Of a stretch of DNA of 64,000 nt, positions 35,993 to 58,075 are shown one piece after another. The DNA lies in NCBI GenBank assembly GCA_026986575.1, contig JALSOH010000004.1, positions 608,001-672,000 of the forward strand. The letters are read 5' to 3'. Numbering within the stretch: the stretch's first letter is position 1; each line of letters begins with the position of its first letter. Position numbers and translations under genes: made by a program. Below the pieces are notes generated by a model. That model was not told where the DNA came from. It did no database searches and was given only the letters and a program-made list of their open reading frames with translations. The stretch is from Thermoproteota archaeon. Its GTDB lineage: Archaea > Korarchaeota > Korarchaeia > Korarchaeales > Korarchaeaceae.

Positions 35993-37429
35993 TCACTCGA
36001 GTTCCTTCAGGATCTTCTTGACCGTTTTCAGCCTCTTCTCCAGAGCCTTTATCTCCCTCTGGAGCCTCCATATCCTCCATTTAACGGCCATCCTCCTCAA
36101 CGGGTTGACCCTCTTAGATGAAAGTGCCTCCACGATGTTCCTCCTGTCCTCTATCGCCGCCTCCAATACGAGGCTCGCCTCCACGGCTTCTCTCCTATAG
36201 GGCTCCAAGTCTTCCTCTAAGAGACCGAGCTCTTTCTCGTACTCTTCCTTGAGCATCTGATATACCGCCTCATCCATGACCTCCTTCCTGCCCTCCAAGG
36301 TGCTGAGCAAGTCCCTCATTTCATTCCTCCTCTTAACCAAGTCCTTAACTACATCTGACCTCAGTCTGGCCGGAGGTAGGGACCATATCTCAGGAGATCT
36401 GACTGAAATCCTCTTAGTTCCTCTTTCCTTAGCCTTGACTCTAGATTTGGAGGTTCTCTTTACGACGTTCCTCTTCTCACTTCTTCCTCTTCTCTCCTCT
36501 CCCTCTATCTTCTCCTCTGTCACCTCATCCTTCAACTTCCTTCCTGCATCCTCGGTCTCGGATACGGTGATCTCCGTCTGGATCGAGAGGAACCTGACTA
36601 CCTCTTGCAAGCTGGGAGGAGGTCTTGGCTTGGGATTCGGGGTGGAACCTAGGTGGGCGCTCTTGACACTGCCTACTTTCACGAAGCCGGGCTTGAAGGT
36701 GAAGGGTCCCTCCACATAAGCCACTCCCCTCTCGAGGCTGCTTATCCTAGAGGCCACGTCCTTGTTGAGCCCTAGATACTGGACCACAGCGGACAGGTCC
36801 CTGATGTACTCTACCCTCAGGATGATCTTGTTCTCAGCCTGACTGAGCAAAGTCTTCGAAACCAGCTGAGGCCTCTGGGTCGAGAACATGAGACCTATGC
36901 CCTTCTTTCTCCCCCTGGTTGCCAGCGTATTCAGCCACGTTAGCGTGCTCATCGCCCCCTTGCCCAAGGTGCTGCCAGCTCCTTTCTCAGGAGCTAGCTC
37001 CTTGGCCTCATCCACCACGACCAGAAACCCATCGGAGCTTCCTATCTTCATCAGACCCTCGATGATCCCAGCTGCTAACTTAGTAGAAGTATCCGGCTTG
37101 TACTTGGACATGTCGAGGATGAAGCTGACTCCCTTGACAGCCACCTGAGCTAATCTACTCGGGGAGGCCTTCGTGAGGTCTACATCCCCATCAGGAGATA
37201 TAATCAGCATGTCGAACACATCAGCTAGGGAGGTGTGCTCCCCCTCCGGGTCTATGATGCCTACGGGATAGCCTCTCTCTAGTAGCTCCTCCACCACCTT
37301 CCTTATAGTCCAAGACTTACCGTAACCGGTTTTGGCTATGACAGCGGTTCTTCCGGTCACAAGCTCGGCTATTTTCAATTTAAATTCTCTGCTGCTGTCG
37401 ACTTCTTGTCCTAGTACTATAGTATCCAT
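35993..37429 (-). CDS. HerA/DUF87-like P-loop ATPase with C-terminal coiled coil
   Basis: AKTGYGKS, IIDPEGEH, VVDEAKELAP, RGRKKGIGLMFSTQRP. Confidence 0.85.
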   Translation of the reverse strand: MDTIVLGQEVDSSREFKLKIAELVTGRTAVIAKTGYGKSWTIRKVVEELLERGYPVGIIDPEGEHTSLADVFDMLIISPDGDVDLTKASPSRLAQVAVKGVSFILDMSKYKPDTSTKLAAGIIEGLMKIGSSDGFLVVVDEAKELAPEKGAGSTLGKGAMSTLTWLNTLATRGRKKGIGLMFSTQRPQLVSKTLLSQAENKIILRVEYIRDLSAVVQYLGLNKDVASRISSLERGVAYVEGPFTFKPGFVKVGSVKSAHLGSTPNPKPRPPPSLQEVVRFLSIQTEITVSETEDAGRKLKDEVTEEKIEGEERRGRSEKRNVVKRTSKSRVKAKERGTKRISVRSPEIWSLPPARLRSDVVKDLVKRRNEMRDLLSTLEGRKEVMDEAVYQMLKEEYEKELGLLEEDLEPYRREAVEASLVLEAAIEDRRNIVEALSSKRVNPLRRMAVKWRIWRLQREIKALEKRLKTVKKILKELE

Positions 37430-37613
37430 CGTAAGCCAATTCTTCTTGGGGATATATAAGAGGACTGCTACTAAGGTTAAGACAAGAGGATCAAATAAAA
37501 TTAGATCCTCCTAAGTTAACTTCGTGAACTACCAGTTTCGCGTAACGATTTTAAGTTATACCATGCGTCAAGATATTACAACGATGGGATCTCCCATCTA
37601 GGGAGGCCTGAAT

Positions 37614-39566
37614 ATGAGGAAGATGTTCTGGTTACCGATCCTGTCCATAGCCGCGCTAACATTGGCGTTTGCTTTACTGCCAGTGCTAGCCAATCCAAGC
37701 GGAGTGGGTTTCGGAGACGCTCAGAGCGTTGAGGCAACCGCACAAGAAGCTTTAGCCAAGGTGAGTCCGGAAACGAAAGCCTGTTTGAATTGCCACGCGG
37801 ACCCCAACACGGTCAAGATGCAGATCCCGTATTACGACTGGTTGAGGAGCAAACACGCATGGCATACTCCAGATGAGCTGGAAGCTTATTACAGGGATAT
37901 CTTTGGGGAGGACGCCCACCTGGCCAGTAAGTTCAAGGGATATCCTTACGTGGTTGGTTGCTATGAATGCCATGGTATGTTCGCCGATTCTGATAGGGCT
38001 GATGTCGTAGAACATAACGGCTTCAAGATAGTCGTTGATGTAACCCCGAAAGACTGTCAACAGTGTCACTACAAAGAGACCAAAGAAATGAGTTGGAGCA
38101 AGCATTCTTTCGCTGCTCTGAATGCAAATCTCAAGCCTTGGTATACCCTAGTGCTTCAAAAGACTTACGGGGACGCTGCCAAAGCCGAATATGATAAGAT
38201 TTTCAAAGATGTGGTCGAATGGCCCTTCTACAAGAAGTATGCTGAGGACTTCTACAATGGAGATGAGAAAGCTGTAAACGCCAGTAAATACTACTTCTAC
38301 GGGGATAAGTTCAAATTCCTCACAGGACTTTACCCGTCCCACGGCATGCTGACCCATGCGGTCACCAATTTTACCGCTAACTACTTAGGAGTAGATTACC
38401 ACTTCATAATGGAGCATCCCAAGTACAACAACAGCTACGTTTACCTAGCATGTATGGAGTGTCATGGTAGTGCTGTTCTCCCAGCCAAGCCCAATGCGAT
38501 AGTAGGTCTCGATGCACCATATGCCAAGGTATATGGAACTCCCGATATGGTGCTGCTTGGATGGCCTAACAATGGGGCCGGCAGGATAAATCCCGATGGA
38601 AGTTTGGGAAGCTGTGCTACGTGTCACACCAGACATACTTTCAGCATCTCCGAGGCGAGGAAGCCCCATACTTGTGGTCAGTGTCATTTAGGGTACGATC
38701 ATCCACAGATAGAGATATATGAGGAGAGCAAACACGGAAACATCTACGACTCGGAAGGAGAGGAATGGAATTGGAGTAACCTGCCATGGAGACCAGGAAT
38801 AGACTTCAGAGCCCCGACATGCGCTACCTGTCACATGAGCCACTTGGTCGATAAGAATGGTAAGGTGATAGTAGCAGGTACTCACGACTTAGGAGCTAGG
38901 CTGACTTGGGAAATTCAGGCCAAATGGAGCTTTGGACAGACTTATTATCCAGATCCATTGAACTCCGGCTTCGCGAAGAAGAGACCGGACTGGAAGAATC
39001 CACTTACAATGGGTAATGCTGCTCTCTCATCCCCTGATAATCCGAGAGGAAGGATGATGAGTGTATGCAAGACATGCCACTCAAGCGACTGGGTATACTC
39101 CTACTTCACATGGTACGACAGTGTGAACATGGATTATAACATAACGTGGAACTACGCTCTCTCATTACTCAAGAAGGCCTATAAAGAGGGCATCCAAGTT
39201 AACAGAGCCGGGGAAATAATAATGAACAGGAAAGCCCTTCCGGGAGATCTGGACGAGTACATGGAGATAATGACCTACTACATATGGCACCACGAGGGTC
39301 GGAGGTGGAGGATGGGAGCCTCCATGATGGGCCCCGACTACACACACTGGCTCGGAATAGTCGACACGGTCATGGATAAGCTGGGAAGAATGACTACTTA
39401 CTATGAGACACAGCTCAAGATGAAACAGCTCGAGAGTAAGATAGAGAAGATGTCAGGGACTGGAATAGGCACAGGAGTTAACATGTTCACCTTCATAGCT
39501 ACCGTGCTCTCACTAGTTGCGATAGTCTTAGTCCTCATCGACATCTTGGTAAGGAGAAGGAAGTAA
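37614..39566 (+). CDS. Octaheme c-type cytochrome, hydroxylamine oxidoreductase (HAO) family, membrane-anchored
   Basis: Signal peptide and 8 CxxCH motifs (CLNCH, CYECH, CQQCH, CMECH, CATCH, CGQCH, CATCH, CKTCH). GRINPDGSLGSC, GYDHPQIEIY, WHHEGRR..MGPDYTHW. C-terminal TM + RRRK. Confidence 0.93.
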   Translation: MRKMFWLPILSIAALTLAFALLPVLANPSGVGFGDAQSVEATAQEALAKVSPETKACLNCHADPNTVKMQIPYYDWLRSKHAWHTPDELEAYYRDIFGEDAHLASKFKGYPYVVGCYECHGMFADSDRADVVEHNGFKIVVDVTPKDCQQCHYKETKEMSWSKHSFAALNANLKPWYTLVLQKTYGDAAKAEYDKIFKDVVEWPFYKKYAEDFYNGDEKAVNASKYYFYGDKFKFLTGLYPSHGMLTHAVTNFTANYLGVDYHFIMEHPKYNNSYVYLACMECHGSAVLPAKPNAIVGLDAPYAKVYGTPDMVLLGWPNNGAGRINPDGSLGSCATCHTRHTFSISEARKPHTCGQCHLGYDHPQIEIYEESKHGNIYDSEGEEWNWSNLPWRPGIDFRAPTCATCHMSHLVDKNGKVIVAGTHDLGARLTWEIQAKWSFGQTYYPDPLNSGFAKKRPDWKNPLTMGNAALSSPDNPRGRMMSVCKTCHSSDWVYSYFTWYDSVNMDYNITWNYALSLLKKAYKEGIQVNRAGEIIMNRKALPGDLDEYMEIMTYYIWHHEGRRWRMGASMMGPDYTHWLGIVDTVMDKLGRMTTYYETQLKMKQLESKIEKMSGTGIGTGVNMFTFIATVLSLVAIVLVLIDILVRRRK

Positions 39567-39631
39567 GTGAGAATGAGCTAACTTCCCAACCAAACATTAT
39601 TTTTTATTTCGTCGCACGAGGGGTCTCCTCA

Positions 39632-40678
39632 ATGAGAAAGTCAGTAGTGGCATTGGCTGTCATATCGTTGGTAGATGCTGTTACTCTGTGGATTTCTCAG
39701 GTACTAGGTCCATTCCCATCAGTCGTTCCGTTAGGAAACCCGACAGCTTACAGAAACCTATATGTGCATGTCCCCATCTCAGTATCTACGTATTTCCTAT
39801 TCACATTAGGCTTCCTTCTAGCGCTTGCGTACCTTCTAAAAGGAAGAAGCTGGATGGAAGAGACGGCCCACTCATTCATTGTAGCAGGTCTCGTGATGGG
39901 ATTCTCCACTCTAGTAACTGGGATGGTATGGGCATCAGAGTCGTGGGGCTCCCCTTGGAATTGGGATCCGAGAGAGACAGGAGTTCTCTTCATGTTCCTT
40001 GCCTTCCTCGTCTATCTAGCTGTCAGATCGAGCATAAAGGATCCTGACATAAAGCCTAGGATCTCAATGGCATTTGCCGTAGCTGCCTACGCAACGATCC
40101 CTTTAAGCTTCTTAGTTCCCTATCTAATGCCCAGTCTCCACCCTATCATGCCAGAGACTAGCATGTTCATAAAAGGGGGGCTTACTCCCCTGATCTTTGG
40201 AGGCAGGATTATCCTAGTCCTATTGGAAGGCGTACTTCTAGCTCTTCTCATGAGATCTGGAGGCGTGAGGAGTGCGAAATTGGCAGTAATTCCCGTCGTT
40301 CTGTTGGCAGTGCTGCTTGTAGCAATGCAACTACCCCCTAACTTGGCGGGAAGTGCAAGTGGGGCATTTAAGGTCCAAGTGATCTCGGGTAATATGGAGA
40401 ACGGAACCCTGTACCTGAGGGTAAGGTCCTCCCAAGGATCTTACAACCTCATCTATAGAGGGAAGCCACCGATAAACCCACTTTTCGTCGTGTTTAGAGG
40501 TGAGAGGAAGCTGACCTTGGAGAAGCACTGGCTGCTGGTGGAGGGCAGGGTTGAGGACAGTACGATAGTGGCCAGCAAGCTGAAACTCATACCTTACTGG
40601 GGGAATTCTGTGAACTCCTTGATATACGGGCTAACCCTTTTCACCCTAGCCTACTTGGCAGGGAGGGAGAGGCGATGA
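39632..40678 (+). CDS. ccmC: Cytochrome c biogenesis protein CcmC with C-terminal extension
   Basis: YVHVP, WWD motif WGSPWNWDPRET, SLHP. Confidence 0.92.
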   Translation: MRKSVVALAVISLVDAVTLWISQVLGPFPSVVPLGNPTAYRNLYVHVPISVSTYFLFTLGFLLALAYLLKGRSWMEETAHSFIVAGLVMGFSTLVTGMVWASESWGSPWNWDPRETGVLFMFLAFLVYLAVRSSIKDPDIKPRISMAFAVAAYATIPLSFLVPYLMPSLHPIMPETSMFIKGGLTPLIFGGRIILVLLEGVLLALLMRSGGVRSAKLAVIPVVLLAVLLVAMQLPPNLAGSASGAFKVQVISGNMENGTLYLRVRSSQGSYNLIYRGKPPINPLFVVFRGERKLTLEKHWLLVEGRVEDSTIVASKLKLIPYWGNSVNSLIYGLTLFTLAYLAGRERR

Positions 40679-41088
40679 AAGGAGTGATATTAGCAGCATC
40701 AATCGCTTTGGTGGTCCTCTTAGTGGGGTATTTGGCCATAACCTCAAGCTCTTATGAGCAGGTATCCCAGCTCTCCAAATACACGAAACCTACGGTGGTC
40801 ACGGTTAGGGCCCTAGTGGCCGACATAGAGACCCTACCCGAGAAGGACTTGATACTCTTCGTGTTGAAGGACGAGAACGGGAGCAAGATATACGCCTTCT
40901 ACGGTCTTACCAGATTTATCAGTCAGTACGGCGCTCCACCATCTCACTCAACGGTGGAGCAGGAGGTCATCATGAGGGGAACGTTCTACCCCAAGAAGAT
41001 GGGGGATGTACTGGGGAGGATGGAGATAAAGGAGATTTTACAGGGATGTCATAAGGCCTATGAGGCTCCACCAGCCACGGGTGGTTAA
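40675..41088 (+). CDS. ccmE: Heme chaperone CcmE, CxxxY (System I*) variant
   Basis: N-terminal TM, OB-like domain, ILQGCHKAY. Confidence 0.8.
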   Translation: MKGVILAASIALVVLLVGYLAITSSSYEQVSQLSKYTKPTVVTVRALVADIETLPEKDLILFVLKDENGSKIYAFYGLTRFISQYGAPPSHSTVEQEVIMRGTFYPKKMGDVLGRMEIKEILQGCHKAYEAPPATGG

Positions 41089-41718
41089 GTGCTATTGGAG
41101 TTCAGGGATGTGTGGAAGAGCTTTGGGAGCGGGTACGTAATAAGGGAGATAACGCTCACTCTCGGAGAAGGAGAGATGATAGCCATAGTGGGCCCCAACG
41201 GTTCCGGCAAAACCACCATTCTGAGGCTCGCCTCGGGCCTCATAGCCCCTTCGAGAGGAGAGGTCCTGGTGAGAGGAAAGGATGCTAGAAGTCCAGCTGC
41301 TAAGGCCCTCCTCGGTTACGTTCCACACTCCCCACCACTCTATGGAGACTTGACCGTTTGGGAGAACCTAGTATACTACGCTGGCCTCTATGGGTATGCT
41401 GACCTGTCTAAGGTGGACTCCATCCTGGCGGAGCTTGGCTTGGACGCCTTCTTGAACCGAAGGGTCGCTGAGTTGAGCTACGGGTGGAGGAAGAGGGTAG
41501 ACTTGGTGAGGGCTCTTCTCCACGATCCACCTCTGCTCCTCATTGATGAACCGTTTTCTGGATTGGATGACGCTGGAAGGAGGTGGTTAATTGAGTTCCT
41601 CATTCAATCGGTGTCAGCTGGCAAGACAGTGGTCATTACATCGCCAAGGGCTGATGTAGAACTGGGAGCTACGGTGTACGAGATCCAGGGGGGAAAGCTA
41701 AATGCTGTTACAGGTTAA
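41089..41718 (+). CDS. ccmA: Heme ABC exporter ATPase CcmA
   Basis: GPNGSGKT, LSYGWRKR, LLIDEPFSGLD, plus operon context. Confidence 0.85.
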   Translation: MLLEFRDVWKSFGSGYVIREITLTLGEGEMIAIVGPNGSGKTTILRLASGLIAPSRGEVLVRGKDARSPAAKALLGYVPHSPPLYGDLTVWENLVYYAGLYGYADLSKVDSILAELGLDAFLNRRVAELSYGWRKRVDLVRALLHDPPLLLIDEPFSGLDDAGRRWLIEFLIQSVSAGKTVVITSPRADVELGATVYEIQGGKLNAVTG

Positions 41719-42346
41719 GAGAATCCTATGGAAGGATCTGAAGCTTGAGGCTAAGAACCTGCCGGAGCTGGGTGGAGCAGCCATATTTTCTGTAGCATCA
41801 TCCAGTCTACTAGGCTTCTCTATGAGCAGATTACCAGTTGAGGATCCCTTACCCCTAGCTGGAACTGGCCTCATGCTCATTGCGCTTTTCCTCTCGGTTT
41901 TCACGTCAGTCATGACTGTCGTGAGGGAGGAGGATTTGGGCACATTGGATGGGGTCAGAATGTCGCCTGTTGAACCGGTAACCTTCTTCTTGGCTAAGCT
42001 CCTACTAACCTTCTTCCTACTGGAGACCCTGATCACGCTGTCCTTCTTGACTACCTTGGGCTTGTCAGGCTGGACGGAGGGAGCGGTTTACCTCTATTCC
42101 CTCGTGGCCTCCTCAGGAGTTTATCTGGCGTCAATATCTGCTCTCTCCTCAGCTATTTCAGTCTACTTGAGAGCAAGAGGAGTTCTCCTACCGACGATTA
42201 TCCTCGTGCTGAGTCTCCCAATAATCCAAGAGACCCTCTCATTCCTGACCTCTGGGGATTACTCCCGTACCGTTATCTTGGCAGTTTCGGGTCTCCTATT
42301 CTCCCTGATCGCCTCTTGGTTGGCTGGTTACATTCTGGAGGTGTGA
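41702..42346 (+). CDS. ccmB: Heme exporter permease CcmB
   Basis: WKDLKLE, REEDLGTLDG, LLPTIILVLSLP. Confidence 0.88.
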   Translation: MLLQVKRILWKDLKLEAKNLPELGGAAIFSVASSSLLGFSMSRLPVEDPLPLAGTGLMLIALFLSVFTSVMTVVREEDLGTLDGVRMSPVEPVTFFLAKLLLTFFLLETLITLSFLTTLGLSGWTEGAVYLYSLVASSGVYLASISALSSAISVYLRARGVLLPTIILVLSLPIIQETLSFLTSGDYSRTVILAVSGLLFSLIASWLAGYILEV

Positions 42347-42349
42347 ACT

Positions 42350-43417
42350 ATGAGGGTAAGCTATCAGAGCATCTTGGCCATCGTAATCGTGTTGACATCC
42401 GTAGGCCTCGGCCTCTTAGTCTCGTTCGGCGGCAAGAGTGCAGCCGTACGGGTCTCCGCAGGAGGGATAGATAGGCGGCTTAAGGAAGGAGTAGTAGCTG
42501 TCATGTTCTGGAGCGAGACCTGCTCATCCTGTGAGTTGATGAAGCCCTACTGGATGGTGGTGGAGAAGTCTCCACCTGAAGGAATCCGGGTAGTGGATGT
42601 GCCTCTCGTTCCCGGAGAGACTGACCGGCTCTTCATGGAGTACGGGATCACGGAGACCCCTACCTTCCTAGTCCTCAGGGACGGTGCGGTGGTGGCTAAG
42701 ATCGTGGGCCCGGTCCAGTCCGAGGACCCGGCCCTTTATTTCAGGGAGTGGATCGAATCGGCCGCTAAAATGACGGGTACCTCTAACGAGCAGGTCTCTG
42801 GATGGGGACCGGCCACCCTAGCCCTGCTTCCCATTTTGGGCGCACTAGTCGCTTTATCTCCATGCTCAGCGCCCATAGTCGCTGCTTACGCAACTATGGG
42901 AAGGGTAAGAGGAAAGGGAGATTACGCGGTCTGTTTAGGCTCCTCATTTGTCGGTACCATGGTCCTCGGTTCAATGATGGTCCTCGCAGCTTCCTTCGTG
43001 GCGGGCCTCATCAAAGGGTTGACCTTCGCCCTAGCTGTGGCTGTCATACTGTTTGGTTCGCTCACGATCTTTACTGCCTCTGAATCATGCCCCTTACCGG
43101 GCCAGAGGGTGAGAGGGTTACTATCATCCGGTCTTCCAGCAGCATGCTTTAGTTTCGGCTTGGTATCTTTCCAGTGCAGCCTACCGTTGCTCGCTGGCTA
43201 CATAGCACTCATAAGCGCAACCAGAGATGTGCTCGCAGGGGTTACGGGTGTAGCTCTACTCGCGCTGGGCATGGCAACAGCACTAGTCATCTCCCTTTAC
43301 CTAGCGAGGAGGGCGACAAGCGTATTCTCCAAAGTCATGAAGAATCCTGCTTGGCTAGAGAGAGTAAGTGGGGGCGTACTTGTGGCCTTGGGCATATATC
43401 TCTTACTTATGGGGTGA
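42350..43417 (+). CDS. Thioredoxin (CcmG-like) fused to CcdA/DsbD-beta thiol-redox transporter
   Basis: WSETCSSC and YGITETPT, followed by a TM domain with LSPCSAP and FQCSLP. Confidence 0.85.
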   Translation: MRVSYQSILAIVIVLTSVGLGLLVSFGGKSAAVRVSAGGIDRRLKEGVVAVMFWSETCSSCELMKPYWMVVEKSPPEGIRVVDVPLVPGETDRLFMEYGITETPTFLVLRDGAVVAKIVGPVQSEDPALYFREWIESAAKMTGTSNEQVSGWGPATLALLPILGALVALSPCSAPIVAAYATMGRVRGKGDYAVCLGSSFVGTMVLGSMMVLAASFVAGLIKGLTFALAVAVILFGSLTIFTASESCPLPGQRVRGLLSSGLPAACFSFGLVSFQCSLPLLAGYIALISATRDVLAGVTGVALLALGMATALVISLYLARRATSVFSKVMKNPAWLERVSGGVLVALGIYLLLMG

Positions 43418-43421
43418 ACTT

Positions 43422-46400
43422 ATGCACTACACAGGATTTATAGCCTTTTTGGGCGGTGTGATCCTCCTTGCCGATATTGCATACTCCTCTATCAAGGAGA
43501 AGGTAACCAAGCTTGGAATCGTATCATATTTAGTCCTCCTCGTCAATTGGTTCCTTTACGTAAGGGCCTTCGTGACTCAGGATTACACCCTCAAGCCCGT
43601 CTACGAAACATCCTCTATGGGACTTCCCCTCATATTCAAGATAGCCTCAAGTTGGTCCAGCGGTGGTGGTAGCCTTTTCCTCCTAACCACAGTCTTAACT
43701 TTCGTCGCCCTTATTCACAGAAGATATCATAAGGACCTTATACTGTCTACAGGTTATGGTGCACTGATACTCACATCGCTAGCATTGGCCTTCCTTAATG
43801 GAGCTTTCGAATCCTTCCCTATTAAGGTGGCCACTGGAATGGGGCTCAACCCTTTACTTAAGAGCCCTTGGATATACCCTCACCCCCTCTCCACTTTCAC
43901 AGCCTATGCATTAATCGCGGCCTCGGCGGCTTCGCTTTATAGCGGGCATGAAAAAGCTAGTGAGCTCTTGGCTAGGGCCGGTTGGCTCCTGTTGACCTTA
44001 GGAATAGCAATAGGTGGATATTGGAGCTATGTGACCTTCGGGTGGGGCGGCTACTGGGCTTGGGATCCAGTAGAAACGGCTGAACTTACTCCATGGCTTG
44101 CTCTAACGGCCTCTTTCCACGTGAAATCCCTTGACAGGAAGCTCTCATACGCTACTCAGATGACTGCCGCGGGAAGCGTCTATCTAGCCATATTAGTCAC
44201 GAGAGTTGGTATATCTCCCCTCCACAGCTTCGCCTCTCCTCAATCCCTAACGAGTGCGCTGACACTAATGCTGACCTTCCTCTTCATAGCTGAGGGAGTA
44301 AGGGGAGGATACAGGAGGTTGGGATCCGAGATAGGCAAGGTGATCAATAGCCCTTACAAGACGGGACTCACCTTATCTTACTTCTCCCTATTCATGATGT
44401 TCTTGGTGCTCTTTTCGGTACTCGCGGTGGGATCCATAGGCAGTACTTTGGGAATGAGTATCGATGTCCCTCAGATGGACTCAGGAATAGATTTCTTCCA
44501 CCCCATTCTCTTTCCATTCGCCCTCCTACTCATGGTATCCCTCCCGATGTGCACCTTGGGGGCGAGATTGGGATGGAGGGAGATACTGGGGTTAATAGAG
44601 GGCCTCTCAATAGTATCTGCCATCCTGCTCTATTTGACCTTCAGGAGGGACATCATCTGGTCACCATCGAGCTCGCTCACTACGAACTTAATTATATCGA
44701 TACTGCTCCCCTTCACAGTAGCTGGCCTCTTCTCTGGACTGGCGGCTCTCTACATCTACGCTAGGGACAGATTAAGTACTATGTCCTCCGTATCGCTGCT
44801 ACACGCTGCCATGGCCCTAACGATGCTCGGCATACTTATGAGCGGGCCCTTCGCTTATAACAGGTCCTACTTTAAGGATGTGATCCTTCCCTACGGTCAT
44901 AGGCTGGATATAGACGGATTGGGGGTGGAACTTAAGGGATACGAGTACAGCCTCTACGGCGGCAAGGTGGACGTCTACACCCCATATGTCGGGAAGTCGG
45001 ACATATACAAGAGAGCAAGCCTCATCATGCTCTCCTTAGCGATTAACTTCGGTGATGCCCTACGGGAGATGAAGGCGGGAGAGAAGCGGCTGGAAGAAGC
45101 GGGCATCTTGGGAATCTACAGAAGCCTTAAGGGGGGTGTTAAGATGGCTGGAAGCTACAGAGCCAATGCCAGTGCTGTCCTAACGGAAGTGACTAATGCA
45201 TCCAAGGAATCAAAGGACCTCGGTGAGGTATCTGTTTCCGTCTCAGATCCCATGATAGCGGCCTTCTTAGGTGCTAGCGGTAATGAGACCACCCTTAGGA
45301 TTATGGTTGTGGGAAACGTAACCCTTAGAGGGGACTTGGCTGAGATGAGAGCCTCTCCCACTGTTATGGTGAATCTCACGTTCCAGAGACCACTCCTCCT
45401 GACCGTCCCTAACGGAACTGTGGAGATAGGGAGGGCATCATTGGTATTCTTTGACATGCTGAAGCAAGGTCACTCTCTACCCCGGAACCTCAATGGTATA
45501 ATAGTAGCTCCAAACTCAACTCTCGTAATAGAGAAGGGCGTGTATCGCGGGGAGAGAGATGTAGATGTACCGGCAACTATGAGGGGAAGGGATGTGGTCC
45601 TGTATGTGGCGTTCACCCAAGGAACCATCTCATCTGACATTCTGAAAATACTAGAAGATCACGGTCTGTCCAGACTGCTCACCAACGGGACATTCACCTC
45701 TAAGCTGCTGAGTGACCTGCTTCCGGGGAACTGCAAGGAACTCATCCACGAGCGTCAAGAGGAGGCTATCAACTGCCTAGGATACCTTCCAATACCAAAG
45801 GAGCTGCCAGAGGGTGCAAAGCTCTCCCTCACGCTTGAGGCTGGAGGATCGAAGGAGCTGTTGGAGATAAGGTTCGACGCCAACGGCGAGGCTCAGGGCA
45901 TCCACGGTCTTGTCGCTCACGTGCTGACCCTACCTAGCGGTCTGGGCGACCTGTACATGGTGTTCCATCCTCCCGTCGTCAAGGACAAGAAATGGAGCAT
46001 AGGCTTCCACGAGCTAATGGTTTACTACCTTCACGAATCGTTCAGGGGGCTTAACGAGGAGCAGAAGCTTGCCTTAGCTTCTCTCTTCGCCTCCTCCTAC
46101 TTGGGTCAGTCCGTCCAGGAGGAGATGATGATCCCCTACACGTTGGACCTCTACGACTTGGCCCAAAGCTTCGACCCCTCTAACTCGACCCTCATGACCT
46201 CAGGCGCGTTCCTCCAAGTGAAGGTGATACCGTACGTCCAGTTGCTGTGGTGGGGGATAATCCTAATGGTCCTTTCAGAGCTCTACCTGATTATAGAGGG
46301 GCTGAGGAGATCCAAAACGACCTCAGCTCCCAAGGAACAGCAGACCGACTTGGGCCGGGAGCCAGAGGGAGATGGGAATGGTGAGCCCGGGGAGGGATCT

Positions 46401-46433
46401 CCCAGCCCTGTAAAGGGTCCAGAGAGTCAGTAA
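43422..46433 (+). CDS. ccmF: Cytochrome c synthetase CcmF with large extracytoplasmic insertion
   Basis: GLNPLL, YPHP, WSYVTFGWGGYWAWDPVE, SPLHSFA, LLHAA, C-terminal PYVQLLWWG. Confidence 0.92.
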   Translation: MHYTGFIAFLGGVILLADIAYSSIKEKVTKLGIVSYLVLLVNWFLYVRAFVTQDYTLKPVYETSSMGLPLIFKIASSWSSGGGSLFLLTTVLTFVALIHRRYHKDLILSTGYGALILTSLALAFLNGAFESFPIKVATGMGLNPLLKSPWIYPHPLSTFTAYALIAASAASLYSGHEKASELLARAGWLLLTLGIAIGGYWSYVTFGWGGYWAWDPVETAELTPWLALTASFHVKSLDRKLSYATQMTAAGSVYLAILVTRVGISPLHSFASPQSLTSALTLMLTFLFIAEGVRGGYRRLGSEIGKVINSPYKTGLTLSYFSLFMMFLVLFSVLAVGSIGSTLGMSIDVPQMDSGIDFFHPILFPFALLLMVSLPMCTLGARLGWREILGLIEGLSIVSAILLYLTFRRDIIWSPSSSLTTNLIISILLPFTVAGLFSGLAALYIYARDRLSTMSSVSLLHAAMALTMLGILMSGPFAYNRSYFKDVILPYGHRLDIDGLGVELKGYEYSLYGGKVDVYTPYVGKSDIYKRASLIMLSLAINFGDALREMKAGEKRLEEAGILGIYRSLKGGVKMAGSYRANASAVLTEVTNASKESKDLGEVSVSVSDPMIAAFLGASGNETTLRIMVVGNVTLRGDLAEMRASPTVMVNLTFQRPLLLTVPNGTVEIGRASLVFFDMLKQGHSLPRNLNGIIVAPNSTLVIEKGVYRGERDVDVPATMRGRDVVLYVAFTQGTISSDILKILEDHGLSRLLTNGTFTSKLLSDLLPGNCKELIHERQEEAINCLGYLPIPKELPEGAKLSLTLEAGGSKELLEIRFDANGEAQGIHGLVAHVLTLPSGLGDLYMVFHPPVVKDKKWSIGFHELMVYYLHESFRGLNEEQKLALASLFASSYLGQSVQEEMMIPYTLDLYDLAQSFDPSNSTLMTSGAFLQVKVIPYVQLLWWGIILMVLSELYLIIEGLRRSKTTSAPKEQQTDLGREPEGDGNGEPGEGSPSPVKGPESQ

Positions 46434-47090
46434 GATACCCGCATTAAGGGCTGTCAGGGGTAAGATAGATAGGTATATGGGAAGAGACCTGAATGAGACC
46501 GCTGCAGCCATGGAATAGCAGAACACATCCCCCACCCCCATAGAGACATCTCCGTGGAACACCATTAGGGGATCTAAGGGGTCCTCTTGGGAGACCATCA
46601 GAAGCTCGCTCAACGGTCCCCTGAAGACCGAATAAGCATCGTATAGGGCGAGACCTCCGAGAAGGAAGTATATGAAGAGGTCGTTAAAGAAGACCACGAA
46701 GAGATATGCAAGTGAAGCTGATAGGAGCGACTTAGCCAAATTACCTATTAGGTCTCTTCTAAAGCTCAGCCAGGCGATTAAGACGGATAGGAGCAGCTCT
46801 AGGGGCCAGGGAAATGATATGAAGGCGCTTATAAGAGTACCCAGAGAGATAAGCGTCGAATAAACGAAGAAGACACCGGTCATGATCCGTATCAGCCGAA
46901 CCATCTTTCTCCTGACTAGGTAAACCATCAGGACGGCCATACCGAATACCAGCACTATGTAGGCTAGGGAGAGGCCAGCAGACTCTTGAACAGATAGTTC
47001 GACTTCTGGCTGGGGTCTAGTGCTTAACACCACTAGTCCAGCAAATATCTCGGCCAGAAGAGGCCAGAGAATAACAGAATATCTCTTCAC
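46323..47090 (-). CDS. Presenilin/SPP-like intramembrane aspartyl protease (PSH)
   Basis: LALYDAYSV, MGVGD, LPGL. Confidence 0.88.
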   Translation of the reverse strand: MKRYSVILWPLLAEIFAGLVVLSTRPQPEVELSVQESAGLSLAYIVLVFGMAVLMVYLVRRKMVRLIRIMTGVFFVYSTLISLGTLISAFISFPWPLELLLSVLIAWLSFRRDLIGNLAKSLLSASLAYLFVVFFNDLFIYFLLGGLALYDAYSVFRGPLSELLMVSQEDPLDPLMVFHGDVSMGVGDVFCYSMAAAVSFRSLPIYLSILPLTALNAGILLTLWTLYRAGRSLPGLTIPISLWLPAQVGLLFLGS

Positions 47091-52369: not shown

Positions 52370-55300
52370 ATGCGGGACCTGTCGAAGCCCCAATCAATAT
52401 TCCTGATCTCCATACTCCTAGTCTCATATCTCGCGATCATTAGCCATTATGCTCCCCTCTCGACCGCTCACGTCAACCTGCCTGTGACAATAGTTGAGGA
52501 CAGCTTCTCTTCAAGCGAGAGAACCTATCAGCGATTTGATTTGACGACGGAAGTGTATGATGCTGGGACTGTCGGGAATTCTCAAGTGGATGTGGATGAA
52601 GCGAACGGCTGGCTGGTGTTCACGGGGTTCAACGAGGAGAATGCTGGTAATCCAAAGAAAGACGAGCCTATTGCCGTATTGAAGGCATATCAGGAACCGG
52701 ATGGCTTTCCCCATTACCTGAGACTCCCCTACAACTACACGATGTCTGTGGACTTTTCACTACCTTCTGGGAGTAAAGGCCACTTCTACGTTCTGCCTAG
52801 ATACGGCTCTGTGGCCAATAAATATGAGGTGGCCGTGGACACGGATTTCAATAACTTGGTCTTTAATGTGGTCCTCTCAGGTGAATGGAGGGAGCTCAAA
52901 ATCTCTCCTCTAGGATTTGATATAGTGGAGGGCAGGTGGTACAGGCTTCAGGTCATGGTGCTGTGGATCACTGACCCATCAACTGGCGATAAAACGAACC
53001 GCATAATAGCTACGGTCACGGACCTCGCTGATCCCGTCAACACGCATAGCGACGAGATCATCGACGCCTCTATCCCCCCATCGGCTCACAACGGGCTTGC
53101 CATCTTGGGCTTCCACCCGACGGAAGACTTCACAGTGCTGGCCGATAACCTCAGAGTAGACGCTCAGATGGAGAAAGTGGGCGAGGAGCCCGATGAGAGC
53201 CTCACCCCGAGCGACTTGGATGTGAGGGAGATATGGGTGCTCCATGACGACAGACTCTTCATCATGGTAAGGACCGCTGGCTCTATAGTAAGGGATCCAT
53301 CCGCGACCAAGTACTGGTCGGTGGAGCTGGACGCCGATAAGGACAGCCTAGCGTCGCTCTCATGGTTCAGAGACTATCTCATCGTCTTCAGCTTGGGACC
53401 TGATGGAACGGAGCAAGCCCACCTCTACGACGGGCTCGGGAATTGGATCTCCCAAGTGCAGATTGTGGGCGGAGGGGAGTCATCAGATGCTTTGATAGTG
53501 GGTATTCCGCTCGGACAACTCCCTCTCCTCTCGGAATCCTTCCTCATCTACTCGTACACTGAGCTAGGGGCTAGTGTGATAGACAGGTTCCCAGAGAGCT
53601 CTGCGATGACCGGAGATTTCCTCACTTATCCCGTTGAGGAGCCACCAGTGGATTGGAAGGCCAATGTGGCCGATGTGTCCGGGGACGCCTCACCCTCCTA
53701 TTTGGACATCACCGATTTCAAGGCAGGACTCACCTCCGATCAGTTGATCTTCAAGATCAAGGTGTCGGGAATCCTGCCTTGGTACGGCGGCTCCCCCGTT
53801 GGCACTTACTGGATCTTCATGGACACGGACGGGGATGCGACCACGGGATATTCAGTGGCGGGCATAGGAGCTGACTACATGGTGGAGTATCACTTGGGGT
53901 ACGCTCCGAAGTTGTATGAGAACACTGGAGCTGGCTGGTCTTGGTCTTTAGTTGGAAGGTGCGAACTCATCCACAATCCTGGAGGGGGTAGTGAGATCTT
54001 TCTATCCGTGCCTCGACACATGATATCCGATCTCCATAGAGAGCTCACTTCGGTGGCCGGATCCGGACAGTCAGGCTCACTCTTGGACTATACGGATGCT
54101 CTGACCATAACTTTAGTGTATAATGCCGAATACTCTGATGCTGAGATTCCGGTTGACACGAGTGGCAAGGAAATAGATGTTGTAGGTGAGGCCACAGGAT
54201 CTCCCGGATCTTATGACTTCGCCGGATGGTATACTAACACAGTGGCCTTTGATCCTGACACGAAGACTGCCGCCGTGGCTTGGGTCAGGAAAGACGCTGA
54301 TAGCTACGGAAATGACATCATATACTTGGAGATAGTGAAGATGGGCTCGAAGAACGCTTCATTAATCGTGAAATACGTGGGAAAGGCCTCTAGCATTGAC
54401 AGCATAGACTCCTTAATCATGGGTGGGGGTAGAATCCTCATAACTTGGACCTACTACACTTCATCCACAAAGACCAATGTGCGTGCCGCCCTTTACGACT
54501 TGGATGGCAATTACATCTGGAGCGGCGATGTAAGAGACACTACCTACTTCGAAGAGTATAGCAGATCCTGTTACGTACCAGGAGAGGGTAAATTCCTCGT
54601 AATCTGGTACTCCAGCGATGGCAGGAAGGTGGAAGGCAGGTGGTTAACTCCGGACGGGAGCATGGGCTCCCCGTTCTACATCACCTCTACTGGAGGCCTA
54701 TCCTATACTCAAGCTGATCTCATGCTCTGCGTGGGTGGCGGTAGCAAGGCCCTAGTGGTCTACCGATACCTCGATGGAGGTGGAGACCTAGGCCTCTCCG
54801 CAAGACTAGTTGACAGCTCGGGAGTGTCCGGCTACATCACACTCTATGACGATAACACAAAGGAGGAGATACCGGGGATAAGCGGGGCCTATCTGGAGTA
54901 TGAAGGGAACGGCTACTTCCTCGTGCCCTTTCTCTCCGGCAGCGAGGTCAGGTACGCCGTGGTCAAGGATGATGGGGCTGTGGTCTCCAACGACAGGAGA
55001 TTAACCGTCAACGGAAGGGAGCCCTATGCGATAAGTATGGAGGACAGGTTCGTGATCTCCTACATATATTTGAATGATGATCCCGAGGGAGACCCGAGAA
55101 TAGCGAACATAAATCCGGAGACGTGGGCCTATCACATAAGGGTGATAGACAGCGATTCAACCCAAATAGCTAGGCATCCGCTGGTGGCCTACGACTCCCT
55201 CAACGATCGGATAGTCTACCTGTGGACTTCCGGTTCCTCCAGCGATTACGAGGTGGCGTATGCGATCATAGATCCTCGGGACAGTCCAGGGAAGTATCCA

Positions 55301-58075
55301 ACCGTGGAAGAGAAGGGGACGCTCCTCTCGATGGGCGGCAATCAGATCGCCGACGGTCTGGCGGTGGTATCCAAGGACGAGTACCTAGCTGTCTATAGGG
55401 ACGACAGCTACGGAGTACAGGAGTTGATGTCGTACGTAAGGTTACCGGAGAAGGAAAATCTTTTAGATGCTTTTCTGATTGAACTGCCTGAGCAAGGCGA
55501 TTACTACAAGAGCATCTTGGAGGGCCTCATAGATGAAGCCTCGTCCAAGATATACGTGGCCGTTGCTTTCATAGATTACGAGGATATCCTGAAGAAGCTG
55601 GTGGAGGCCCATAACAGGGGGGTCGATGTCAAGGTCATAATGGACGACAGCCCGGGTAATTCTGACGCCCTCGATTACCTCCGCACTTACGGGGTCGAGG
55701 CGGTAGACGACTCCTCACTGGGTGATCCCACTCACATAATGCACGATAAGTTCATAGTGATAGATGGAAGGAAGCTGCTTGTATCCACGGTGAACCTCAT
55801 AGAGGACGACTTTTTCAGAAACAACAACACAGCTTTCGTGGTATCGAGCAGAATAGCAGCTTACTACTACGAGAAGGAGTTCCTCCAGATGTGGAATGGA
55901 GGGTCTGGTAAGTTCGGGATAGAGAAGACCGAAAGCAACGACTTCATTTCATCCACCACCTATTCCGGCAGGCAGCTGATGTTTCAGGGGCTCTTCACCC
56001 CACAGGAGTTCGGAGATAGGGGAAGGATACCGAATGTCTTGGCTGGATACGTGAAGAGGGCTTCGAAGCTCAGGTTCGCATCCTACATATTCACCACCAG
56101 CGGATGGGTCTCACCGCTCTACGATTCGATAGTCCACATGATCGACGGCGGTGGAAGCGTCGTAGGTGTGTTTGACGAGCTCCTCAACCTTCACAATAGG
56201 GGTAGGCGCATCTACGACCTGATAGATGGGGGAGTCCCCGTTTACGTCGACACGCACAAGTACAAGATGCATGCGAAGCTCTTCGTCGTTGATGATAGAC
56301 TCGCAGCTCTAGGCAGCTGGAACCCGACAAAATCAGCCACTACAGTGCACGACGAGAACATTCTCGTGATAATGGACGACAGCCCTGACGGGTTCGCCTC
56401 CAGATTGAGCGATTGGGTGGACGAGATGGCGTCAGATCCGGAGCACTTCGCTCTGATAACCCCAACATCCACCTACAGGGTGCCCCACCTCCTTATAACC
56501 GAGGTCATGTTCATGCCCGATTCAACCGGCAGCCCCGATGGCGAGTGGGTGGAGATATACAATCCTACCGGTGAAGATGTGGATCTGACGAACTACCTTA
56601 TAGGCGACTCGGAAACCTTGGTAGGCACAGCCCCCTACGATGATGAGAGCCTCTACAGGTTCCCATCCGGCGCGGTGATACAAGCTGGCAGGAGGATAGT
56701 GGTGGCCTACAAGGCAGCCGAATTCGAGTCCACCTATGGATATAAACCAGATTTCGAGTTGATTGACACCGATTCATCGGTTCCCGACCTGTCCCCGTAT
56801 GATCCAACTAATTACGGTAGCTCATGGAACTTGGACGATACTGGTGATGAGGTGCTACTGATTGAGCTGCAGGAAGGCGGCTTCCTACAAATAATCAGCG
56901 CCGTGTGGTACGGTTCCTCCACCTACTTGGATGGTCCAGTGGATACCTCGACTCTAGTCCCGGGCCAGACGATCCAGAGGTCCCTAGAGGATCGAGATGC
57001 CGCCTATGCCTCCACCGTCTTCGTGATTGCCAACCCAGCCCTGCCCTACGCTAAGCTCTTCTTAACGGTTCAAGACCCATCAGGGGACTCCTTGGCCTGC
57101 CAGGTGCACGTAACTTCCTCATGGGGAATTGATACCTACGCTAGTGACGGAGACTCACTTCAGGTGACTCCCGGGGATCGGCTAGCTCTCTCCGCGCAGG
57201 ATTGCTTTGGGTACTCCTTCCTGAGATGGGAGGGATATGTCAGCGACACCACTCCCCATATCTCATTTGAGATGCCGGATCACGACGTTGAGGAGACCGC
57301 AGTGTACAGCACAAAGAGCTACGAACTTAACATAAGGGTGATCAACGATAAAGGCTCTTCCCTGCCCTGCACCGTAGATATATCGGTAAACGGAGTGCCA
57401 GCCGGCTCGTTCGGTGATGGGGACTCCCTAGCAGTTCAGGAGGGAGCTGAAGTCAAGGTATCTCCGTCGGAATGCAGCGGATACTCATTTGATCACTGGG
57501 AGCTCGATGGAACCGAGCTGGATGAGGTCAGCCCGACATTCACTATGACGGGGGGTATGACCTTGAAGGCGATCTTCACTAGATCCCCCACGAGGAGAAC
57601 TATCGCCCCTAAAGCTTGGTACGCGTTGATATTCCCGGAGAAGTTCAGGTACGTGGCTAAGGGAGCGGACCTAGAGATGAACATGGATATCCTCTCCAAG
57701 ACAGCCGGACCGTCGCTGCCTGGCCAGAAGAGTATGTTGATAATATTGGGAGGCCCCGATGTCGTTCCTTACAACTGGAGGACTATTGGCGCGAGTTTCC
57801 TGAAGGACAGAGGTAGCTTCGTGGGGTTAGAGTTCAGATCAAAGGCCTACATCGCCGCATTCGGTGAAGTAGATTACGCCATCATCTACGTGGATCGGGA
57901 CAACATGGTGATAAGGATTGCTGGGATTACCAGGTACGGTACTAGGGCAGGTCTGATGTACTTAATGGAGCACCCTGACCTCCTGAGTGCTTCCGGTATC
58001 TATCTGATAAGATGGGAGGACCTCGACGGGGATAGTGACGTGAGCTTGAGCGAGATAAACCTCCTCTCTCCCTAA
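52370..58075 (+). CDS. 1901-aa secreted multidomain protein with two PLD (HKD) nuclease domains, lamin-tail domain and C-terminal surface module
   Basis: Signal peptide. MHDKFIVID and MHAKLFVVD. LLITEVMF..GEWVEIYNP (LTD). GYSFxxWE repeats. LGGP..AGITRYGT tail. Confidence 0.85.
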   Translation: MRDLSKPQSIFLISILLVSYLAIISHYAPLSTAHVNLPVTIVEDSFSSSERTYQRFDLTTEVYDAGTVGNSQVDVDEANGWLVFTGFNEENAGNPKKDEPIAVLKAYQEPDGFPHYLRLPYNYTMSVDFSLPSGSKGHFYVLPRYGSVANKYEVAVDTDFNNLVFNVVLSGEWRELKISPLGFDIVEGRWYRLQVMVLWITDPSTGDKTNRIIATVTDLADPVNTHSDEIIDASIPPSAHNGLAILGFHPTEDFTVLADNLRVDAQMEKVGEEPDESLTPSDLDVREIWVLHDDRLFIMVRTAGSIVRDPSATKYWSVELDADKDSLASLSWFRDYLIVFSLGPDGTEQAHLYDGLGNWISQVQIVGGGESSDALIVGIPLGQLPLLSESFLIYSYTELGASVIDRFPESSAMTGDFLTYPVEEPPVDWKANVADVSGDASPSYLDITDFKAGLTSDQLIFKIKVSGILPWYGGSPVGTYWIFMDTDGDATTGYSVAGIGADYMVEYHLGYAPKLYENTGAGWSWSLVGRCELIHNPGGGSEIFLSVPRHMISDLHRELTSVAGSGQSGSLLDYTDALTITLVYNAEYSDAEIPVDTSGKEIDVVGEATGSPGSYDFAGWYTNTVAFDPDTKTAAVAWVRKDADSYGNDIIYLEIVKMGSKNASLIVKYVGKASSIDSIDSLIMGGGRILITWTYYTSSTKTNVRAALYDLDGNYIWSGDVRDTTYFEEYSRSCYVPGEGKFLVIWYSSDGRKVEGRWLTPDGSMGSPFYITSTGGLSYTQADLMLCVGGGSKALVVYRYLDGGGDLGLSARLVDSSGVSGYITLYDDNTKEEIPGISGAYLEYEGNGYFLVPFLSGSEVRYAVVKDDGAVVSNDRRLTVNGREPYAISMEDRFVISYIYLNDDPEGDPRIANINPETWAYHIRVIDSDSTQIARHPLVAYDSLNDRIVYLWTSGSSSDYEVAYAIIDPRDSPGKYPTVEEKGTLLSMGGNQIADGLAVVSKDEYLAVYRDDSYGVQELMSYVRLPEKENLLDAFLIELPEQGDYYKSILEGLIDEASSKIYVAVAFIDYEDILKKLVEAHNRGVDVKVIMDDSPGNSDALDYLRTYGVEAVDDSSLGDPTHIMHDKFIVIDGRKLLVSTVNLIEDDFFRNNNTAFVVSSRIAAYYYEKEFLQMWNGGSGKFGIEKTESNDFISSTTYSGRQLMFQGLFTPQEFGDRGRIPNVLAGYVKRASKLRFASYIFTTSGWVSPLYDSIVHMIDGGGSVVGVFDELLNLHNRGRRIYDLIDGGVPVYVDTHKYKMHAKLFVVDDRLAALGSWNPTKSATTVHDENILVIMDDSPDGFASRLSDWVDEMASDPEHFALITPTSTYRVPHLLITEVMFMPDSTGSPDGEWVEIYNPTGEDVDLTNYLIGDSETLVGTAPYDDESLYRFPSGAVIQAGRRIVVAYKAAEFESTYGYKPDFELIDTDSSVPDLSPYDPTNYGSSWNLDDTGDEVLLIELQEGGFLQIISAVWYGSSTYLDGPVDTSTLVPGQTIQRSLEDRDAAYASTVFVIANPALPYAKLFLTVQDPSGDSLACQVHVTSSWGIDTYASDGDSLQVTPGDRLALSAQDCFGYSFLRWEGYVSDTTPHISFEMPDHDVEETAVYSTKSYELNIRVINDKGSSLPCTVDISVNGVPAGSFGDGDSLAVQEGAEVKVSPSECSGYSFDHWELDGTELDEVSPTFTMTGGMTLKAIFTRSPTRRTIAPKAWYALIFPEKFRYVAKGADLEMNMDILSKTAGPSLPGQKSMLIILGGPDVVPYNWRTIGASFLKDRGSFVGLEFRSKAYIAAFGEVDYAIIYVDRDNMVIRIAGITRYGTRAGLMYLMEHPDLLSASGIYLIRWEDLDGDSDVSLSEINLLSP

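Follow-up and report, generated by a model that had tools for sequence, protein, structure and literature searches.

The stretch of DNA considered here, referred to below as the window, comprises 64,000 nucleotides (nt) of a korarchaeal genome (assembly GCA_026986575.1, contig JALSOH010000004.1; G000:C4:608001-672000 in the coordinates of this study), the whole of which amounts to 1.91 Mb in 11 contigs and is rated 99.7% complete. Positions 37614 to 46433 of the window hold a gene for a cytochrome c with eight haem-binding motifs and, behind it, genes for the maturation of c-type cytochromes (ccm genes). The locus is a new member of the archaeal octaheme cytochromes of the type represented by the octaheme cytochrome c of Ignicoccus hospitalis (IhOCC) and by hydroxylamine oxidoreductase (HAO), matured by a streamlined System I. 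I consider it rather probable that the cytochrome is a reductive enzyme of the HAO/IhOCC type, exported, tethered to the membrane, and matured by the adjacent System I.

The cytochrome gene (37614..39566, + strand) encodes 650 amino acids (aa), with exactly eight CxxCH motifs, at C57, C116, C148, C280, C334, C354, C403, and C485. The protein has 16 cysteines in all, every one of them within these motifs. A chance origin of the motifs may be ruled out, since a scan of the whole genome in six frames found just three open reading frames (ORFs) with at least two CxxCH (8, 6, and 2 motifs, respectively). A predicted Sec-type signal peptide (aa 1-26, ending in VLA; 37614..37691, + strand) can be read by eye from the translation, as can a hydrophobic stretch that would serve as a C-terminal transmembrane anchor (about aa 624-646, followed by RRRK; 39483..39551, + strand). 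A comparable hydrophobic C-terminus appears in the printed tails of most of the full-length homologues taken from the loci compared. The preliminary description of the window had already called the product an octaheme cytochrome of the HAO family, on the basis of the signal peptide, the eight motifs, an Asp-His pair, and the terminal helix, and in this it was correct.

The assignment to family can be made more precise. The Pfam model PF13447 matches the protein with 85 bits (cut-off 21.9), and the closest solved structure is IhOCC (4QO5), which was found with an E-value of 4.8e-61 using the single sequence. With a profile of 46 sequences, the match to 4QO5 has an E-value of 2.5e-118 and covers chain residues 6-511; the next matches in the PDB are Kustc0458 (6H5L, E 8.1e-61) and then NeHAO, the HAO of Nitrosomonas europaea (1FGJ, E 1.8e-60; 4FAS is also NeHAO). 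The single sequence by itself matches NeHAO with E 2.6e-17, the likeness being confined to blocks. The Cys and His residues of the CxxCH motifs (24 in number) are invariant over 46 diverse family members, and the order and spacing of the motifs are those of the family, to which the cytochrome, judged by its sequence, belongs. Beside the eight motif histidines, conserved His residues are found at H81, H134, H164, H341, H374, H424, and H559/H560, a count consistent with seven bis-His haems and one open haem. The protein would presumably be trimeric.

The Asp-His pair is Asp362-His363, within the motif LGYDH (38697..38702, + strand), which aligns with Asp267-His268 of NeHAO. Neither residue varies in any of 20 archaeal homologues. 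Because IhOCC has Asp-Val at the aligned site, the pocket of the window cytochrome is closer to those of the true HAOs than is that of IhOCC.

The direction of catalysis in this family is bound up with a second site, the tyrosine that is cross-linked to haem P460 in oxidative HAO (Tyr467 of NeHAO, bonded to haem 4 of the adjoining subunit). In NeHAO the loop reads NPGgWTYTEGW, the Y being chain position 467. The alignments to PDB sequences made with the single sequence and with a 20-sequence profile end before this residue, and the 46-sequence profile alone reached it (the alignments of that profile to Kuenenia HOX and HDH stop before their C-termini). It places Y576-T577-H578-W579 of the window protein (39339..39350, + strand) at the cross-link loop, pairing Y576 with W465, T577 with T466, H578 with Y467, and G581 with G470, with posterior values of 9, and W579 with T468. 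The residue in the cross-link column is thus His578, on this alignment, and not Tyr. The corresponding columns, 576 to 578, are W, T, T in IhOCC and V, S, W in Kustc0458. The alignment favours a non-cross-linked enzyme of reductive type. According to PMC8042395, absence of the tyrosine goes with reductive catalysis (Kuenenia HAOr takes nitrite to nitric oxide (NO), and the epsilon-HAOs reduce nitrite and hydroxylamine), while absorbance of P460 at 463-475 nm and trimers stable in sodium dodecyl sulfate are the marks of oxidative P460-type HAO and HDH. IhOCC is described as an octaheme nitrite reductase without P460 (PMC9250108).

The window cytochrome may be compared with several characterized proteins. 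It shares with IhOCC the eight CxxCH in the same order, the lack of a tyrosine in the cross-link column, and an origin in an archaeal hyperthermophile in the case of the latter. IhOCC differs, apart from its Asp-Val, in lacking an insertion of about 100 aa between haems 3 and 4 (aa 181-278 of the window protein), and its solved chain is 521 aa long, as compared to 650 aa, with stalk and anchor, in the window. No Pfam family matches within the insertion (nt 38100-38450). A different protein of I. hospitalis, ABU82535.1 (638 aa), has both the insertion and the segment MMGPDY.HW, and is 42% identical to the window protein over 641 columns. It is not the chain of 4QO5 (E 2.5e-80) and is presumably Igni_1359. 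ABU82535.1 and its orthologues, Pyrde_0496 of Pyrodictium delaneyi and Pyrfu_1334 of Pyrolobus fumarii, form a sister clade to that of the window, separate and deep, and the proteins of the Pyrodictiaceae have a coiled-coil stalk some 200 aa longer.

NeHAO is of the same fold family, carries the Asp-His pair, and has C-terminal helices that can be aligned up to chain residue 504; it differs in having Tyr467 where the window protein has His578 and in being soluble rather than anchored. Kustc0458 (HAOr, 6H5L) and epsilon-Hao, like the window cytochrome, have no cross-link tyrosine and keep the Asp-His pair (as GPDH in 6H5L), and both reduce nitrite, hydroxylamine, and NO in vitro (PMC8042395). 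The same paper gives HAOr a dihaem partner, Kustc0457; no such gene adjoins the window cytochrome. The preliminary description had also likened the segment MGPDYTHW to the epsilon-Hao type. The likeness stands to the extent that MMGPDY.HW is common to bacterial proteins of about 460 aa, entered by their sources under the name of hydroxylamine oxidoreductase or dehydrogenase; these proteins, classed by source names only, are shorter than the window's and form a separate clade.

The six genes downstream of the cytochrome gene are all co-directional with it. The first lies 65 bp away, across a spacer with a T-rich tract (39597..39610, + strand) that from its sequence may be a terminator and/or a TATA-like element, and the others abut or overlap one another. 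The order originally given, ccmC, ccmE, ccmA, ccmB, Trx-CcdA, and ccmF, is borne out by models, motifs, and, for ccmE, a score of features, with the membrane half of Trx-CcdA the weak part. The first gene, ccmC (39632..40678, + strand; PF01578, 91 bits), encodes 348 aa, comprising a core with H46, WGSPWNWD, and H170 and a C-terminal extension. H46 and H170 are invariant in an alignment of 15 CcmC sequences. The product of ccmE (40675..41088, + strand) is 137 aa in length, with an N-terminal anchor and, at aa 125-129 (nt 41047-41061), the sequence CHKAY, an instance of the CxxxY motif. Searches with it found nothing significant in Pfam or NCBIfam (chance-level rows up to E 10) and no match among PDB sequences up to E 10. 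Its identification as CcmE rests on operon position, size, anchor, CHKAY, and language-model features (Atlas), by which it scores 0.91 to archaeal CcmE clusters of PF03100, with 30 of 30 matches in that set.

The genes ccmA (41089..41718, + strand), encoding an ABC ATPase, and ccmB (41702..42346, + strand), encoding an ABC permease, are recognized above their cut-offs, at 132.3 bits with TIGR01189 (cut-off 131.6) and 26.1 bits with PF03379 (cut-off 24.9), respectively. Next comes Trx-CcdA (42350..43417, + strand), an anchored thioredoxin (PF00085, 34 bits; CSSC at nt 42521-42532) fused to a CcdA-like membrane domain. The match of the membrane half to DsbD_TM (PF02683) is weak and below the cut-off (E 0.09, 12.5 bits), though it extends over profile positions 6-214 of 219, and two cysteines of this half lie, as read off the translation, in the contexts SPCSAP and QCSLP, which resemble P-C-x-x-P. 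The last gene, ccmF, is listed as 43368..46433 (+ strand; 1021 aa). PF01578 and TIGR00353 match over aa 64-500, WGGYWAWD is found at nt 44043-44066, and the nrfE/CcmF subfamily model gives 112 bits, under its cut-off. Translation probably begins at the ATG at 43422 rather than at the listed GTG at 43368, because the matches of relatives begin at residues 2-19 and a stop codon lies just upstream. Past the CcmF core is a region of about 460 aa (aa ~501-961, window 44868-46250) that has no match in Pfam but is conserved in relatives, in which tblastn matches continue as far as residue 980 or so. This region could take the place of the absent CcmH/CcmI.

CcmH (PF03918) was sought throughout the genome and found no match, while the same search was positive in four control genomes. 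The set of genes, with a CxxxY motif in CcmE and no CcmH, supports its placement with System I*, the streamlined Ccm of archaea, as the preliminary description had it. It resembles CcmABCEF of M. acetivorans and System I* of Desulfovibrio in both of these respects and also in possessing CcmA, B, C, and F and a reductant pathway of the CcmG/CcdA type (PMC3601427, PMC9084895). CcmABCEF have been found sufficient in an archaeon, where the Cys of CxxxY is required for the binding of haem (PMC9084895). The window differs from M. acetivorans in that its ccm genes lie in one operon rather than at four loci (PMC9084895). It differs too in that CcmF is a single protein of 1021 aa rather than split, thioredoxin and CcdA are fused, and CcmC carries an extra domain.

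That domain is an OB fold at aa 232-322 of CcmC (40325..40597, + strand), set between two extra transmembrane helices and modelled by AlphaFold2 with a mean predicted local distance difference test (pLDDT) score of 85. All 15 of the CcmC sequences from these archaea are built alike, about 350-390 aa long; in each an extra helix leads into a domain of about 75-100 aa, after which a last helix ends the protein, and within the extension H299 is near-invariant and Y332 invariant. Among known structures the modelled domain best fits E. coli CcmE (1SR3; Z 9.0 over 78 aligned residues, root-mean-square deviation 3.0), with CcmE of D. vulgaris (2KCT) at Z 8.7, and these matches are tied, within one Z unit, with OB folds of RPA, SSB, and tRNA synthetases. 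Foldseek ranks the CcmE in 8CE8 eighth. The domain does not have the CxxxY tail of CcmE, BLASTP of the extension against CcmE found nothing, the extension's profile drew nothing credible from the PDB, and Atlas gave no usable match. The model thus indicates that CcmC carries a fused OB-fold domain that is CcmE-like. A review of 2011 records no variants of CcmC (PMC3601427), and a full-text search, as judged from its listing, brought up no paper on a fusion of CcmC with an OB domain. Such a domain is relevant to the way in which archaeal System I manages in the absence of CcmD and CcmH.

The operon had been described as the cytochrome's own, dedicated to its maturation, and this is not supported. 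A search of the genome with PF01578 finds only the window's ccmC and ccmF, so that this is the sole ccm system, and because it is the only one it must serve all three of the genome's c-type cytochromes. One of the two others is a protein of 499 aa (G000:C1:40463-41959; L066:9464-10963) with six CxxCH, a Thr/Ser-rich linker, a DOMON domain, and a C-terminal anchor. Relatives within the order match the DOMON part only (residues 233-422), the haem part being found in this genome alone. This hexahaem-DOMON protein may be a surface electron-transfer protein. The other is a split-Soret-like dihaem cytochrome c with a Tat signal, behind which is an FdnI-like cytochrome b (G000:C9:252975-255104; L067:8976-11104); the pair was seen also in L058, L062, and L063.

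Related genomes point in the same direction. In G012, which belongs to the same genus, and in G008 and G031, from different genera of the family, the ccm operon lies behind the split-Soret dihaem cytochrome and cytochrome b. No octaheme gene was found in any of these three genomes, and in G031 no match to TrxCcdA either. The slot before ccmC is therefore one filled by different cytochromes in related genomes. Even so, linkage of the cytochrome gene to ccm genes is seen in 15 of 26 related loci, including 10 of the 20 loci from other orders.

The octaheme gene is narrowly distributed among the relatives of this organism. It occurs in 8 of the 38 genomes of the order, all within the window's genus, and in one of seven genera represented by 30 genomes of the class, as compared to 11 of 38 genomes and three of six genera for ccmF. 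Outside, a search of 1.84 billion representative proteins (E up to 0.001) gave 881 that match the cytochrome, with a full-length match in only three other clusters of 50% identity. Named relatives are Pyrolobus fumarii Pyrfu_1334, Pyrodictium delaneyi Pyrde_0496, the 638-aa protein of Ignicoccus hospitalis, and proteins of Hyperthermus butylicus, Pyrofollis japonicus, and Geoglobus ahangari; the members of the cytochrome's own 90% cluster are labelled by their sources as Candidatus Korarchaeota. Every one of 38 homologous ORFs taken from loci has the Asp-His motif, and each has eight CxxCH, or seven in six rows where the end of the locus cuts the ORF. The kind of cytochrome is already known, because Kletzin et al. 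2015 (PMC4429474) report an archaeal cluster of "hydroxylamine oxidoreductase" (11 hits) and two HAO-like octahaem cytochromes of Ignicoccus.

A quick maximum-likelihood tree of 46 rows, its support given only by the Shimodaira-Hasegawa-like approximate likelihood ratio test, shows the window clade (5 rows, support 100) as sister to one that unites Pyrodictiaceae, Desulfurococcales, and Ignicoccus (17 rows, support 100) and includes proteins of cultured species. Both join with support of 99, and the separation is deep, with a stem length of 0.55. The Geoglobus group and the bacterial proteins of about 460 aa fall outside both archaeal clades.

The history of the site can be seen in its flanks. 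To the left of the module is a gene for a HerA-like ATPase (35993..37429, - strand; PF01935), and to the right one for a 255-aa membrane protein (46323..47090, - strand; a weak match to the presenilin family, E 1.5e-5, below cut-off). Members of the window's sub-clade have the module between these two genes. In G012 the site is empty, the two genes lying 64 bp apart (L057); in G020 it holds a gene for a 451-aa ATPase (L056:9981-11336); and in G018 (L059) it holds a peroxiredoxin-like gene with TrxCcdA-ccmF, the cytochrome being on another contig with ccmCEAB. The spot between these two conserved genes is thus variable, and the module is a polymorphism of presence or absence there. The suggestion in the preliminary description that it is possibly a transferred module found no support: there are no flanking direct repeats in 37300-46600 (only short pairs of low identity), no anomaly of GC content over the module (0.47-0.53, within the range of the window), and no integrase among the proteins examined from 33.2 to 52.3 kb (tRNA genes were not searched for), and the tree shows a deep sister clade rather than a recent import. 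Recent transfer is not indicated; that the genus gained the cytochrome long ago is plausible. Rfam families gave no match anywhere in the window. Among sequencing runs, none of RNA was listed with this stretch, and four DNA entries contain it wholly or in part, two of them being possible sources. In comparison to G018 (L006/L033, L059), identity is 81-83% for the octaheme protein, 58% for ccmC, 52-53% for ccmF, and 53-55% for the HerA-like protein. The higher conservation of the octaheme protein could reflect strong constraint or exchange within the genus. Farther along the window (52370-58072, + strand), an ORF of 1901 aa combines two PLD-like domains with a lamin-tail domain and one that resembles an InlB B-repeat; its product is probably a giant nuclease or phosphodiesterase, either secreted or borne on the cell surface.

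In order to consider what the cytochrome might do, one needs the respiratory genes that accompany it. Just upstream of the window (G000:C4:589785-606000; L068) is an Isp-type NiFe hydrogenase, with small and large subunits, maturation genes, a TmcC/HmcE-like membrane anchor, and an HdrD-like FeS protein. An enzyme of 1210 aa adjoins it, and the idea that this molybdoenzyme is NarG was discarded, as it is FDH-N-like and its neighbours encode an FeS protein, cytochrome b, FdhE, and FdhD. The genome has four molybdopterin matches, among them the FDH-N-like enzyme, an unclassified enzyme of 655 aa, and a polysulfide-reductase-like (Psr-like) enzyme with in-frame stops. The genes for the last (G000:C4:800880-804370; L069) have the molybdopterin subunit as two ORFs with a TAA between and an in-frame TGA in NrfD; they could be pseudogenes, assembly errors, or cases of recoding. 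There is also a haem-copper oxidase in the genome. The match to PF00115 had been considered as a possible NorB, an idea rejected since it is an oxidase-type subunit I with subunit II adjoining.

The window cytochrome is most likely of the reductive type. As the Asp-His pair is kept and the tyrosine of the P460 cross-link absent, catalysis would be expected to run in the reductive direction, as in IhOCC, epsilon-Hao, and Kuenenia HAOr. The 650-aa protein would be exported and held at the outer face of the cytoplasmic membrane by its C-terminal helix, and its seven bis-His haems would conduct electrons to a catalytic haem that is five-coordinate, the site at which a small oxyanion or oxide of nitrogen (nitrite, hydroxylamine, or NO) would be reduced. 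In its maturation, CcmABC would put haem on the Cys of CcmE, CcmF would ligate it to CxxCH without CcmH, and the Trx-CcdA fusion would keep the cysteines of CxxCH reduced. By analogy, the process may amount to the reduction of nitrite or hydroxylamine at the cell surface, with direction, substrate, and donor all presumed from the comparisons above. As to the donor, no gene for a quinol-oxidising dehydrogenase is adjacent to the cytochrome, as had been observed at the outset. The search for a donor suggested at that time had a divided result: NapC/NrfH was not found anywhere in the genome, but a cytochrome b was, beside the split-Soret dihaem cytochrome, and this pair is the genome's sole candidate for a quinol-linked donor.

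Several considerations weigh against this account, the absence of NapC/NrfH among them. Among the four molybdopterin matches no nitrate reductase equivalog was recognized, and because of this a source of nitrite within the cell is not evident. The split-Soret/cytochrome b pair was not found in three genomes that hold the octaheme cytochrome, G016 and G017 (98% complete each) and G011 (86%), and two others, G021 and G024, hold only fragments of it; since it was not found in some of these genomes, the pair cannot be an obligatory partner. The mapping of the cross-link is a sequence profile alignment, with Tyr576 just two residues off the aligned column, and the AlphaFold2 model of the cytochrome, built from a 20-sequence alignment, is too poor (pLDDT 48) for superposition on NeHAO. 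Finally, the physiological role of the Ignicoccus relatives is unsettled, reduction by hydrogenase having been reported (PMC4429474), and Pyrde_0496 is present in haem-stained bands of P. delaneyi grown on nitrate and of P. delaneyi grown on ferrihydrite (PMC8105010).

These last two points lead to a different role, mainly that of electron transfer, in which a wire of haems tethered to the membrane would conduct electrons from a periplasmic-side hydrogenase or the quinol pool either to another reductase or to an acceptor at or beyond the surface (Fe(III) minerals, for example). Igni_0955 and Igni_1359 were proposed as a relay after their reported reduction by the native hydrogenase (PMC4429474), relatives occur in the iron reducers P. 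delaneyi (Pyrde_0496) and Geoglobus ahangari, and cells produce Pyrde_0496 whether they grow on ferrihydrite or on nitrate (PMC8105010). The helical or coiled-coil stalk that precedes the anchor varies greatly in length amongst homologues, giving totals of 650 to about 880 aa, and the present genome offers both the Isp-type hydrogenase and a second cytochrome of surface type, the hexahaem-DOMON protein. However, a pure wire would have no need of the catalytic Asp-His pair that is invariant in all 20 archaeal relatives, the count of conserved histidines would fit seven bis-His haems and one open haem, and the cytochrome that is commoner on ferrihydrite in P. delaneyi is a different one, Pyrde_0784 (PMC8105010). 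I regard the wire as doubtful, without being negligible. I hold it improbable that the open haem serves to reduce a sulfur compound (sulfite, polysulfide, thiosulfate, or tetrathionate), in an organism with relatives living on sulfur and hydrogen. Ignicoccus and Hyperthermus, both of which hold relatives of the cytochrome, are sulfur reducers, and the in-frame stops in the Psr-like molybdoenzyme might make another reductase of sulfur compounds useful. Pyrde_0496 and two genes resembling those of sulfur reductases have been assigned to one putative complex (PMC8105010). But MccA and OTR, the octaheme enzymes known to act on sulfur compounds, belong to other structural clades, with the open haem in the N-terminal module (PMC9250108), and the PDB search either gave no match to the MccA and OTR families or matched them far less well than it did HAO and IhOCC.

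The opposite direction of catalysis, with Tyr576 cross-linked to the haem and hydroxylamine or hydrazine oxidised, seems to me more improbable still. It draws on the position of Tyr576, two residues ahead of the aligned column, given that alignments of loops can slip, on the Asp-His pair, which oxidative enzymes share, and on the haem-copper oxidase, which could accept the electrons. Yet the profile alignment sets Tyr576 on Trp465 of NeHAO with high posterior values, and IhOCC, which lacks P460 (PMC9250108), also has Trp in this column. Among the 20 archaeal relatives the column is occupied by Tyr in 14 and by Phe in six. With Trp in NeHAO and IhOCC and Phe in six relatives, a covalent role for Tyr576 is argued against. 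Moreover, the scan for CxxCH reveals no other multihaem ORF fit to be a partner like c554.

Taking the reductive enzyme and its operon together, one may venture that a korarchaeal sub-lineage gained a catalytic cytochrome of the HAO type, which came to head an existing ccm operon and displaced the split-Soret/cytochrome b client elsewhere; that it thereby acquired a new terminal reductase, for nitrite, hydroxylamine, NO, or perhaps minerals; and that the OB domain of CcmC is an element of haem handover that replaces the missing CcmD/CcmH. As a whole this sequence of events is speculative, and I think it rather unlikely to hold in all its parts.

The locus, each component of which is of a type already known, does not overturn current understanding, but brings from a hot vent such a cytochrome to an archaeal group previously not known for one. 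In full-text searches, judged by titles and the openings of abstracts, no paper came up that deals with c-type cytochromes or HAO-like proteins in Candidatus Korarchaeota. The combination of an IhOCC-like architecture with the Asp-His pair of true HAOs makes the protein a useful natural variant for learning what sets substrate and direction in this family. Considered alongside the haem-copper oxidase, the FDH-N-like enzyme, and the hydrogenase of this genome, the cytochrome module suggests that respiration by means of c-type cytochromes takes place in some vent members of this little-studied class.

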